Shown here piece after piece: positions 5,355-20,331 of a DNA stretch of 30,642 bases (positions are counted from its first letter, which is position 1; every line of letters starts with the position of its first letter). This stretch comes from Rickettsiales bacterium (GTDB lineage Bacteria; Pseudomonadota; Alphaproteobacteria; Rickettsiales; UBA1997), in the NCBI GenBank assembly GCA_947455845.1, contig CANGQE010000001.1, positions 1 to 30,642 on the forward strand, read 5' to 3'. The translations under genes and the position numbers were made by a program. The notes beneath the pieces are model-generated. The model saw nothing but the letters and a program-made list of their open reading frames with translations, made no database searches and was not told where the DNA came from.

Positions 5355-5454
5355 AGTTTGTCACCCCGCACTTGCTGCGGGGTCCACCGTGCAACACAAT
5401 AATTACTTAATGCGTGACTCGGTGGACCCCGCAGCAAGTGCGGGGTGACAAACT
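5355..5454. repeat. Family C inverted-repeat doublet (GTCA ends outward)
   Basis: Perfect 35-bp arms at 5355-5389 and 5420-5454 containing GTCACCCCGCACTTGCTGCGGGGTCC; 30-bp spacer. Confidence 0.95.
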
Positions 5455-5514: not shown

Positions 5515-5550
5515 TTGACTTCCTCCAAGCCAAATCCTAAAAAGGCGCGC
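5515..5550 (+). promoter_or_regulatory. Putative stable-RNA promoter for tRNA-Gln
   Basis: TTGACT-N17-TAAAAA followed by a GC-rich discriminator GGCGCGC. Confidence 0.5.
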
Positions 5551-5613
5551 TCTTTTTTACGATTTTGGTTTTGTAAAATATTTTTTTACTAAATCACTTT
5601 TAAGAAAAAGTTT

Positions 5614-5688
5614 TGGGACGTCGCCAAGCGGTAAGGCAGCGGTTTTTGATACCGCCATCCGTAGGTTCGAATCCTGCCGTCCCAACCA
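5614..5688 (+). tRNA. tRNA-Gln (TTG)
   Basis: Acceptor TGGGACG/CGTCCCA, anticodon arm GCGGT-TTTTGAT-ACCGC, GTTCGAATC T-loop, encoded CCA. Confidence 0.96.
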
Positions 5689-5813
5689 CTTTTTTTAGAG
5701 CTGTAGAAAAGATTTACCAAAATGAACGAGTTATTTGCGAATAATCCTACCTTCCTAGCAACTCTCCCCCACACTCCCCAAACCCAATCTCAATTTAATA
5801 ATTTACACACAAC

Positions 5814-6248
5814 ATGGATAATTACGGAAACCGCGACGATAACAATCGCAGCAATTTTAGAGAAGAAAATCTCAGAGACGGCGGCGACAGAACGCAGCTT
5901 TTTATCGCAAAAGGCCGCAATGATGGCATGGATTCAAGATCTTTAGTAGATTTCGTATCTTCCGAAACTCAGATCGATCCTAACGAAATCAGCAATGTAA
6001 AAGTTTTAGACGATTTTTCTTTTTTCGCAGTAACGCATGAAGATGCTGAAATGATTTTAGATTTTTTCCAAGAAAAAGCCGGCGACGGACGTCCTTTGGT
6101 TTCTAAAGCTAAAAGAAAAAAACCAAGCGGCGAAAATGGCGGCGGATACAGAAACAATAACGATCGCAACGGCGGTGGTCGCAGAGATTACGGCGGCAAT
6201 AGCGGTAACTATGGCAACATGCGTAGAGATTACGGCAATCGCGATTAA
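5814..6248 (+). CDS. Stand-alone DbpA/DeaD-type RNA-binding domain protein with a G/R/N-rich tail
   Basis: 41/74 ungapped identities (hand count) with the C-terminal domain of the helicase at 18670-20331; followed by an intrinsic terminator. Confidence 0.85.
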   Translation: MDNYGNRDDNNRSNFREENLRDGGDRTQLFIAKGRNDGMDSRSLVDFVSSETQIDPNEISNVKVLDDFSFFAVTHEDAEMILDFFQEKAGDGRPLVSKAKRKKPSGENGGGYRNNNDRNGGGRRDYGGNSGNYGNMRRDYGNRD

Positions 6249-6274
6249 TTTAATTTAGTCTTTTAAATTAATAG

Positions 6275-6308
6275 AAGCCCCGCTAACAAAAGTTAGCGGG
6301 GCTTTTTT
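6275..6308 (+). terminator. Rho-independent terminator
   Basis: 13-bp stem AAGCCCCGCTAAC/GTTAGCGGGGCTT, 4-nt loop, T-tract. Confidence 0.85.
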
Positions 6309-18669: not shown

Positions 18670-20331
18670 CTATTGCTTTTCTTTCGCTCTAGTAACCAAA
18701 GATCTTTTGCCACCAGATTGTTTTTGGAAAGAGTGCAAAACTTTTTCCGCATCTTCAAAAGGAACAGCGAAGAATGAGAAGGCGTCAAACATCTTCACAT
18801 CGTCGATGCGGCGTTGATCAACGCCGGTTTCATTTTGAATGAACTCAACCAATCTTTTTGGATCCATGTTGTCGTTGCGCCCCTTAGCGATAAATAAACG
18901 CGCAGTTCCTTTACGATCAACATAACTTCTGCGACCTTGATCGCCGATTGGACGATGTCCGCTCATACCGCGGTCATCGTAGTAATAGTCTTTATTTTTG
19001 CTGTATTCGTTGATTTCGCTGTAACTTTTTTCGTTAAGCTCGTCTTTGAAAGCTAGCTTCAACAAGGCAGCAATTGCTACTTTTGGATCAACCGCTTCAG
19101 CCAAAATTTCATCAACAATTTCACCAACATCCGAGAAATTTCCGGCTGAGATAATTTCAAGAAGGGAGTTTTTGATGCGTTGTTTTTTGCTTTCAATCAC
19201 GTCAGAAACATTTGGAACTTTTTGTTTCGTGATCGTCATGTTCGACATTTTTTGGATCGTAACTAGCTTACGATATTCCGAAGGCGTGATCAAAGTGATC
19301 GCGATTCCAGTTTTACCAGCTCTTCCGGTACGACCAATTCTGTGCACGTAGCTTTCAGGATCTTGAGGTAAAGCGTAGTTAATTACGTGAGTAAGATTGT
19401 CGATGTCAATACCACGAGCAGCAACGTCAGTTGCAACTAACACGGTGATTTTTTTAGCACGGAATTTTTGCAAAACTTTTTCTCTTTGACCTTGAGAAAG
19501 ATCGCCGTGAATCGCTTCAGCTCTACAGCCACGATTAGCCAACTTGTGTGAAATTTCATCAGCATCAATTTTGGTACGGCAAAAAACTAAACCGTAAAAA
19601 CTTTCTTCAACGTCGATGATTCTAAAAAGAGCTTCGAACTTGTCAGATTGAGGAACTTCGAAATAAATTTGCTGGATATTGGCTTTGCTAATATTGTCTT
19701 TAGCAACTGCAATAACTTCATATTCATTCATGTATTTCTTAGCTAAACGCTCGATGTGAGCAGGCATTGTAGCAGAGAATAAAACTGTTCTGCGCTCTTT
19801 CGGAGCAGCTTTCAAAATTGCTTCAATATCATCAATGAAACCCATGTTTAACATTTCGTCAGCTTCATCTAAAACGATGTAAGAAACTTTTGAAATGTCT
19901 AGAGTGCGGCGCTGCAAGTGATCCAAGATACGACCGGGGGTTCCGACAACAATATCAACACCACGTTGTAAACGTGAAATTTGACGCTCGATTGGTTGAC
20001 CACCGTAAACCGCAATGATGCGGGTTTTCTGCTCTTCAGCAAATGAACTTAATTCTTCGGCAACTTGAATCGCTAATTCACGAGTTGGAGCCAAGATGAT
20101 AGCCTGAACTCTTTTAGAATCAGGAACGATATTTTCGATGATCGGAATTCCGAAAGCTGCAGTTTTACCAGTTCCTGTTTGAGCTTTACCGATTAAATCT
20201 TTTTTATTTGCGAGAAGAAATGGGATGGTTTGCGCTTGAATTGGAGTTGGTTCTTCAAAACCTTTTTTGTGTAAAGAATTGAGCATCATATCAGAAAGAC
20301 CGAGCTCTCTGAATTTAACTAGAGTGGACAT
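18670..20331 (-). CDS. deaD: DEAD-box RNA helicase with C-terminal DbpA-type RNA-binding domain (DeaD/CsdA-like)
   Basis: Q motif, AQTGTGKT, PTRELA, LDEADEM, SAT, HRIGRTGRAG and a C-terminal RBD. Exact orthology is uncertain. Confidence 0.85.
   Translation of the reverse strand: MSTLVKFRELGLSDMMLNSLHKKGFEEPTPIQAQTIPFLLANKKDLIGKAQTGTGKTAAFGIPIIENIVPDSKRVQAIILAPTRELAIQVAEELSSFAEEQKTRIIAVYGGQPIERQISRLQRGVDIVVGTPGRILDHLQRRTLDISKVSYIVLDEADEMLNMGFIDDIEAILKAAPKERRTVLFSATMPAHIERLAKKYMNEYEVIAVAKDNISKANIQQIYFEVPQSDKFEALFRIIDVEESFYGLVFCRTKIDADEISHKLANRGCRAEAIHGDLSQGQREKVLQKFRAKKITVLVATDVAARGIDIDNLTHVINYALPQDPESYVHRIGRTGRAGKTGIAITLITPSEYRKLVTIQKMSNMTITKQKVPNVSDVIESKKQRIKNSLLEIISAGNFSDVGEIVDEILAEAVDPKVAIAALLKLAFKDELNEKSYSEINEYSKNKDYYYDDRGMSGHRPIGDQGRRSYVDRKGTARLFIAKGRNDNMDPKRLVEFIQNETGVDQRRIDDVKMFDAFSFFAVPFEDAEKVLHSFQKQSGGKRSLVTRAKEKQ

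Follow-up and report, generated by a model that had tools for sequence, protein, structure and literature searches.

A stand-alone DbpA/CsdA-type RNA-binding domain protein encoded downstream of tRNA-Gln in a narrow lineage of Rickettsiales

A short open reading frame of a Rickettsiales bacterium encodes a protein, here called solo, that consists of a DbpA/CsdA-type RNA-binding domain between two disordered arms and is separated from the DEAD-box helicase core to which this domain usually belongs. Comparison of its sequences across related genomes indicates that solo is a real, lineage-specific gene under selection. The DNA analysed is a stretch of 30,642 nucleotides (hereafter the window), which is contig 1 of a metagenome-assembled genome (MAG) of 1.31 Mb in 188 contigs with a completeness of 76%. 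The features of the solo locus and of the paralogous helicase gene in the window are summarised in Table 1.

Table 1 Features of the tRNA-Gln/solo locus and of the paralogous helicase gene in the window
Feature	Position	Strand	Basis and remarks
Putative sigma-70 promoter	5515..5552	+	Read from sequence: TTGACT (5515-5520), 17-nt spacer, TAAAAA (5538-5543), GC-rich discriminator GGCGCGCTC (5544-5552)
tRNA-Gln, anticodon UUG	5614..5688	+	ARAGORN; Rfam tRNA 61.4 bits; 125 nt upstream of solo
Spacer and leader, 125 nt	5689..5813	+	Composition, RNA fold, motif comparison
Solo, N-terminal disordered arm, residues 1-26	5814..5891	+	N/D/R-rich; pLDDT <50 at residues 1-23
Solo, RRM-like DbpA/CsdA-type RNA-binding domain core, residues 27-102	5892..6119	+	PF03880, AF2 fold, dN/dS; ends in basic SKAKRK
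Solo, C-terminal disordered tail, residues 103-144 and stop	6120..6248	+	Translation; pLDDT about 40; G/N/R/Y/D-rich
Intrinsic terminator	6273..6306	+	Terminator scan: 15-bp stem, 8 GC pairs, T-run
Parent paralog, Hera/CsdA-type DEAD-box helicase, no tail	18670..20331	-	Pfam, NCBIfam, BLASTP against solo
Helicase RNA-binding domain, residues 476-553	18673-18906	-	Within the helicase 18670..20331

The solo ORF (5814..6248, forward strand) codes for 144 amino acids and starts at the first ATG, four codons past an in-frame stop. A Pfam search detected PF03880 (DbpA) in residues 29-95 with an E value of 5.5e-15 and 55.6 bits, compared to a gathering cut-off of 25.6 bits. It was the sole family found at E values up to 1, and DEAD, Helicase_C, PF00076 (RRM_1) and PF00313 (CSD) were absent. 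The usual context of PF03880 is that of a C-terminal appendage of a DEAD-box helicase core, whereas a tRNA gene lies upstream of solo, in keeping with the original prediction of a protein with its own ATG and no preceding helicase core. A six-frame scan of the own genome likewise recovered the domain of solo, and the solo and helicase copies are the only ones present in this genome.

The AF2 model of solo, calculated from a 45-row alignment, has a core (residues 26-98, pLDDT about 90) with the order beta-alpha-beta-beta-alpha-beta, formed by strands at residues 26-31, 60-64, 69-74 and 96-98 and helices at residues 41-52 and 75-89. In Foldseek, the best PDB matches were the E. coli DbpA RRM, the YxiN RNA-binding domain (RBD) and the RRM-like domain of CsdA, followed by eukaryotic RRMs including that of hnRNP A18. 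Fold and matches thus show the RRM-like architecture of PF03880. Residues 1-23 and 106-144, about half of the protein, are predicted to be disordered. The disordered tail described in the original prediction was found again in the translation and in the model; it contains RRDYG twice and has a net charge of +3.

The helicase in the window has 553 residues and features, according to Pfam, the domains DEAD, Helicase_C, DeaD_dimer (PF25399, residues 373-431) and DbpA. BLASTP aligned it with solo over 83 positions with 44 identities (about 53%, E 1e-23), and the earlier ungapped count of 41 identities in 74 positions from LFIAKG onward was exactly reproduced. The helicase ends with ...RAKEKQ* straight after its domain and does indeed lack a tail. 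Among the NCBIfam models, the furthest-reaching match of the full-length protein was to the DeaD model (positions 5-536). Since a DeaD dimerisation domain is present, the helicase falls into the Hera/CsdA class. In the DbpA/YxiN subfamily, the core passes straight into the RNA-binding domain without a dimerisation domain, which is not the case here. The claim that solo is of the DbpA type and targets hairpin 92 of 23S rRNA therefore lost its basis, as such targeting is not implied by a parent of the Hera/CsdA class. This class binds RNA stem-loops broadly, and Hera binds stem-loops and most tRNAs (PMC7566566).

Orthologs of the helicase were found in 41 of the 44 genomes of the genus. Tail-less helicases are encoded by all 14 solo-bearing species for which this feature was determined, and also by 17 species lacking solo, which speaks against the originally proposed tie between solo and a tail-less helicase. 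A minority of the family helicases keep an Arg/Gly/Asp-rich tail past the RNA-binding domain, namely those of G048 (50 aa), of G139 and G098 from the sister genus g18 (27-40 aa) and of G003 (8 aa). Nearly all remaining helicases of the genus finish at RAKDKK*. This distribution indicates that the tail was lost within the helicase family. Searches of the tailed-helicase bearers G048 and sister genus g18 did not reveal a solo.

A word-indexed protein search yielded 44 clusters of 116-208 aa with 53-93% identity to solo, all of which contain PF03880 alone. The aligned solos share the N-terminus MxNYExRDN, the domain, an invariant SKAKRK-type motif and R/D/G/N-rich tails with repeats such as DRPRRDFG. 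The genus comprises 44 species genomes; tRNA-Gln was located in 41 of these and 30 loci were examined. An intact solo ORF (133-198 aa) was present at 15 of the 30 loci, in all 15 species on the same strand as the tRNA and 50-240 nt downstream of it. The original prediction of a helicase-free, separately encoded paralog of the helicase C-terminal domain thus holds in at least 15 species. At the other 15 loci, unrelated genes come after the tRNA, and in no case a helicase. No solo remnant was detected at the solo-less tRNA-Gln loci with tblastn (E values up to 10) or blastn, and solo was not found in the solo-less congeners that were searched by protein or inspected at the tRNA-Gln locus. Judged from these genomes, solo is dispensable in many congeners.

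Selection on solo was estimated with the Nei-Gojobori method from 76 codons of the core. The dN/dS ratio was 0.02-0.10 in close pairs (dS 0.09-0.38) and 0.1-0.28 in distant pairs. In matched species pairs, dN was about 0.19 for the solo core and about 0.045 for the helicase domain, so that amino acids change 3-4 times faster in the solo core even though purifying selection on it is strong. The closest public records with a solo are MAGs from freshwater lakes that bear the label 'Rickettsiales bacterium' or 'uncultured Alphaproteobacteria'. DNA of the window is present in lake and freshwater metagenomes of several studies, some of which contain 65% or more of its sampled words.

In a maximum-likelihood tree of 51 domain cores, which comprises only 77 columns and has an arbitrary root, the 15 solos form one clade (100/99). 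The solo subclades mirror the helicase subclades of the same species. Together with the single clade, this pattern is consistent with a single duplication and subsequent vertical descent. Among full-length helicases, the closest relative identified with BLASTP and phmmer is the helicase of family f1. In several relatives the helicase matches extend to solo residue 4-6, so the N-terminal arm of solo corresponds to the R/D-rich linker of the helicase. Residues 5-138 of solo are also colinear with positions 466-602 of the 628-position NCBI equivalog model of E. coli DeaD (E 3.6e-5). An ancestral helicase with a tail is suggested by the persistence of tailed helicases in G048 and sister genus g18. 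In the simplest history, solo would have arisen through partial (3'-end) duplication of an ancestral tailed helicase gene, and the helicase line would have shed its tail later.

Basic residues kept across the solos and the helicase domain of the window are K33 and R35 of the AKGRN loop, K63, R93, and K100, R101 and K102 of the KAKRK motif. The basic loop and the KAKRK motif are also the most conserved positions of solo. Ten positions are fixed differently in solos and helicases, including R-to-Q at 28, R-to-S at 57, H-to-D at 83 and G-to-E at 91. With the terminal basic motif left out, the mean net charge of the core is -7 in solos compared to +1.1 in helicase domains. This loss of about 8 charge units could mean a weakened or altered contact with RNA. 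The core charge ranges from -1 to -7 and the charge of the C-terminal tail from +3 to +6, each in 14 of the 15 orthologs; overall, the protein is close to neutral. Both arms are rich in R, D, N, G, Y and F and vary in length across the orthologs (16-45 aa for the N-terminal arm, 14-82 aa for the tail). The tails lengthen and shorten by repeats, for example four copies of DRPRRDY, and the shortest one (14 aa, in G016) is net negative.

The position of solo just downstream of tRNA-Gln, as originally predicted, was confirmed at a distance of 125 nt, and the strong terminator behind the gene was found as well (Table 1). A comparable GC hairpin with a T-run is located past the stop codon of most solo orthologs. 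In most of the 15 relatives, the sequence TTGACT-17-TA(A/G)AAA plus GCCGCGCTC precedes tRNA-Gln, about 50-60 nt before the 5' end of the mature tRNA. A consensus promoter scan with default settings did not flag the putative tRNA-Gln promoter of the window; we take its arrangement to be that of a stable-RNA promoter with a GC-rich discriminator. The leader is depleted in G, with a single G in its last 70 nt, and lacks a Shine-Dalgarno site. It appears to be unstructured (RNA fold z-score +1.48), since 190 of 200 shuffled sequences fold at least as well. The motif CAAACCCA..AATTTAAT ahead of the solo ATG is common to the spacers of the relatives. Within the spacer, neither a terminator nor a promoter-like site ahead of the ATG was found, the single match (5795-5822) crossing the ATG, and an Rfam scan of the leader gave nothing above threshold besides the tRNA. 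Across the window, the starts of 19 ORFs show almost no Shine-Dalgarno sequence and have A/T- or C/A-rich upstream regions, which suggests that initiation independent of this sequence may be the norm in this genome.

The spacer between tRNA-Gln and solo is only 50-51 nt long in four species, too short for a canonical promoter, and none of these spacers contains a terminator. The neighbours of the tRNA-Gln/solo pair vary: pntAB, ftsY or an ABC permease gene were found upstream and msrB, recQ or polA downstream. We infer that co-transcription of tRNA-Gln and solo is the best reading of the locus, because the two genes are adjacent in 15 of 15 species while both outer neighbours change, the spacers are short and no terminator intervenes. 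In freshwater metatranscriptomes, short contigs of low depth touch the solo ORF over only about 60 nt in libraries X25 and X26 (those listed are 151-251 nt long). No contig of the four libraries bridges tRNA-Gln and the solo ORF, and tRNA-Gln itself is covered by contigs of many organisms. As assembled contigs were used and the libraries may hold DNA, neither transcription nor silence follows from these matches.

Integration of an island at the tRNA was dismissed, as the window contains the tRNA 3' end only once. Two relatives (L026 in G011 and L025 in G046) carry an insertion of about 150 nt in the spacer between tRNA-Gln and solo. It is flanked by a direct repeat that consists of the tRNA-Gln 3' end (..CCGTCCCAACCA) and the next 9-31 nt, and a palindrome resembling a T arm, GGGTTCGAACCTTAGGTTCGAC, lies inside it. 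Parts of this insertion also occur downstream of tRNA-Gln in the solo-less loci L030, L039, L040 and L016. The insertion resembles a small mobile element with the 3' end of the tRNA as its target. Within the window itself, a long hairpin-forming element lies at 5355-5454, between pntAB and the tRNA promoter; it gave several sub-threshold Rfam matches to unrelated hairpin families and is probably a palindromic repeat element.

The occurrence of PF03880 outside the solo lineage was surveyed by genome scans. Within the order, the domain was present in 17 of 151 genomes, and the genome analysed here was the only one with a short frame. In the class Alphaproteobacteria, 59 of 400 genomes had a single match, and every one of these matches lay in an open frame of at least 585 aa. 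For the phylum, the short frames among the 150 matches listed (there were 244 further matches) were two contig-end truncations and one frame of 316 aa. The latter (G635:C11:892294-892506) is located within a large contig and could be a truncated or domain-reduced helicase; its genome contains a further copy of 605 aa.

Searching 1.84 billion representatives with phmmer resulted in 320 matches to solo. Many of these are short, and those that were opened turned out to be fragments. P0145 and P0189 are the 3' part of a helicase frame of 650 aa that contains one in-frame stop, P0081 is the 3' part of a frame of 665 aa that spans an N gap, and the P0106 cluster was rejected as an independent solo family as it includes a 595-aa member. 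A gut metagenome contig (ENA ERZ943916; L098:1558-3507) contains a 650-aa DEAD-box helicase frame with a single in-frame stop at the conserved Tyr of ...ES-Y-IHRVGRTGR; gene callers report it as two proteins, a 'helicase' of 331 aa and a 'DbpA protein' of 168 aa. This stop could be a sequencing error, a pseudogene mutation or a recoded stop. A true stand-alone PF03880 copy outside the solo lineage was not found in the genomes and databases sampled. Most other short 'DbpA-domain proteins' in databases thus appear to be helicase fragments, which should be kept in mind during annotation. Likewise, we found no literature on a stand-alone DbpA domain protein; the PF03880 literature that was found treats the domain as a helicase appendage.

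Among known systems, the C-terminal modules of E. coli DeaD/CsdA (RBD, PDB 5B88) and T. thermophilus Hera belong to the same PF03880 family as solo and share its fold. The C-terminus of E. coli DeaD (NC_000913) consists of an R/D linker, the domain and a GGERREGGR-type tail, which corresponds to the three-part layout and arm composition of solo. The order of the DeaD/CsdA/Hera module, an R/D-rich linker followed by the RBD and an Arg/Gly-rich extension, is thus retained in solo. The parent helicase of the window has the CsdA/Hera architecture of core, dimerisation domain and RBD. In contrast to these proteins, solo has neither helicase core nor dimerisation domain, is encoded separately with a start and a terminator of its own, and has an acidic instead of a neutral or basic core. 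Its identity to the E. coli DeaD domain is low (15 of 43 aligned positions, E 1e-4). The RBDs of DbpA and YxiN (PDB 7PLI, 7PMQ, 3MOJ and 2G0C) belong to the same Pfam family and are the best structural matches (Foldseek probability 1.00, E 2e-4 to 4e-4), but share only 16-18% identity with solo. The dimerisation domain of the parent helicase has no counterpart in DbpA and YxiN, so their specificity for hairpin 92 is not transferable.

A likeness in build exists with cyanobacterial Rbp, plant GRPs and vertebrate CIRBP/hnRNP A18, which like solo combine one beta-alpha-beta-beta-alpha-beta domain of roughly 80 aa with a disordered Gly/Arg/Tyr-rich tail. Such small RRM plus glycine-rich proteins (Rbp, GRPs, CIRBP) are ATP-independent RNA chaperones and serve here as a functional model for solo. 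Solo differs from them in its domain family (it lacks PF00076), its independent origin from a helicase appendage, the second, N-terminal arm and the acidic core. For the gene arrangement, the E. coli unit thrU-tyrU-glyT-thrT-tufB is an example of tRNA-mRNA co-transcription. Both loci place a gene for a protein of the RNA or translation apparatus straight after a tRNA gene, on the same strand and with no terminator in between; for tRNA-Gln/solo, co-transcription is deduced from conserved adjacency and short spacers.

Taking family and locus together, solo is somewhat more probably than not an ATP-independent binder or chaperone of structured RNA that is made together with tRNA-Gln. This function is suggested by the known role of the Hera-type family, by the likeness of the arms to those of DeaD, and by the basic loop and KAKRK motif that solo has kept. 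Transcription would start at the conserved tRNA-Gln promoter and yield a tRNA-mRNA co-transcript. Processing of the tRNA would then free the solo mRNA, and the level of solo would follow stable-RNA synthesis. The protein would be translated from the G-depleted, unstructured leader and would bind or chaperone structured RNAs such as rRNA and tRNA precursors and mRNA stem-loops without ATP. Contact with RNA may be made jointly by the Arg-rich arms and, within the domain, by the conserved basic loop and KAKRK motif. The own genome also encodes an ordinary cold-shock-domain protein (contig C3), so there is no obvious vacancy for solo to fill. A role of solo as a replacement for Csp was discarded, as the genome has this gene.

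The reading of solo as a decaying remnant or gene-calling artefact, i.e. a truncated helicase fragment, draws on the many short PF03880 'proteins' in databases that are artefacts: both distant examples examined belong to full-length helicases, and a third cluster has a 595-aa member. For solo itself we regard this reading as excluded for practical purposes, as a tRNA instead of a helicase core lies upstream, the ORF is intact in 15 species, dN/dS is well below 1, the N-terminus is conserved and a full helicase is encoded elsewhere in the same genomes. The original prediction had named a full helicase at the relatives' locus, as the sign of a truncated remnant, and neutral evolution of the ORF as observations that would speak against it; none of the relatives examined carries such a helicase, and the core is under purifying selection instead. 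It is unlikely, but far less so than a remnant, that solo regulates or competes with the helicase by taking the same RNA sites or by docking on it, which would tune or block its recruitment, or by lending it the Arg/Gly tail in trans. Solo is the closest paralog of the helicase RNA-binding domain and the helicases of solo-bearing species are all tail-less as far as determined, while tailed ones occur in G048 and g18, where searches showed no solo. However, the 17 solo-less congeners with tail-less helicases do without such compensation, and the ten fixed substitutions and the charge shift argue against a shared recognition surface. The trans cofactor of the original prediction is also disfavoured by analogy, as the core of YxiN does not regain ATPase activity when its isolated RRM is provided in trans (PMC5389509).

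Two further explanations start from the charge pattern of solo, and we assign a low probability to each. As a condensate scaffold, solo would use the mutual attraction of its acidic core, its Arg-rich mixed-charge arms and RNA to form RNA-protein droplets like those of E. coli DeaD, which phase-separates according to PMC12758526 (citing Hondele 2019). The predicted disorder of about half of the protein, the composition of the arms, the opposite charges of tail and core in nearly all orthologs and the tail repeats are consistent with this role. All of these points concern composition, though, and tail length is poorly conserved, as seen in G016. The core may instead have been re-purposed for binding of a protein, e.g. 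a ribosomal or degradosome component, without direct contact to RNA, in which case the arms would be solubilising or would tether the protein to RNA. The strong acidification of the core and the loss of R28, R57 and the H83 position in all solos point in this direction, and a dN above that of the helicase domain under continued purifying selection is as expected after neofunctionalisation. Against this stand the conservation of the AKGRN loop and the KAKRK motif, which exceeds that of all other positions, and the lack of a partner candidate encoded nearby, with neighbours that vary.

Rather speculatively, several of these elements may be combined in a freed domain with a new function. Expressed from a stringently controlled stable-RNA promoter in a fixed ratio with tRNA-Gln, solo with its acidic RRM-like core and Arg-rich arms might be a dedicated chaperone of, or a decoy for, tRNA and rRNA precursors that competes with the Hera/CsdA helicase, or else an RNA-dependent condensate scaffold. 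If true, this would be a bacterial case of a helicase accessory module becoming an autonomous RNA-granule or chaperone protein.

To our knowledge, the C-terminal RNA-binding domains of DbpA, YxiN, Hera and CsdA have been studied only as tethers that bring the helicase core to RNA. The domain of solo and its likely activity are familiar, whereas its stand-alone state, the acidified core and the fixed linkage to a tRNA are unusual. In solo, a known accessory module of helicases has become a gene of its own that is kept by selection within one narrow lineage. Small (133-198 aa) and easily expressed, the proteins of this family can show what the domain and DeaD-like Arg/Gly arms do without an ATPase. 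They allow to ask whether arms of this kind are enough for bacterial chaperoning or condensation, and how the liberation of a domain becomes fixed in streamlined genomes of 1.1-1.9 Mb.
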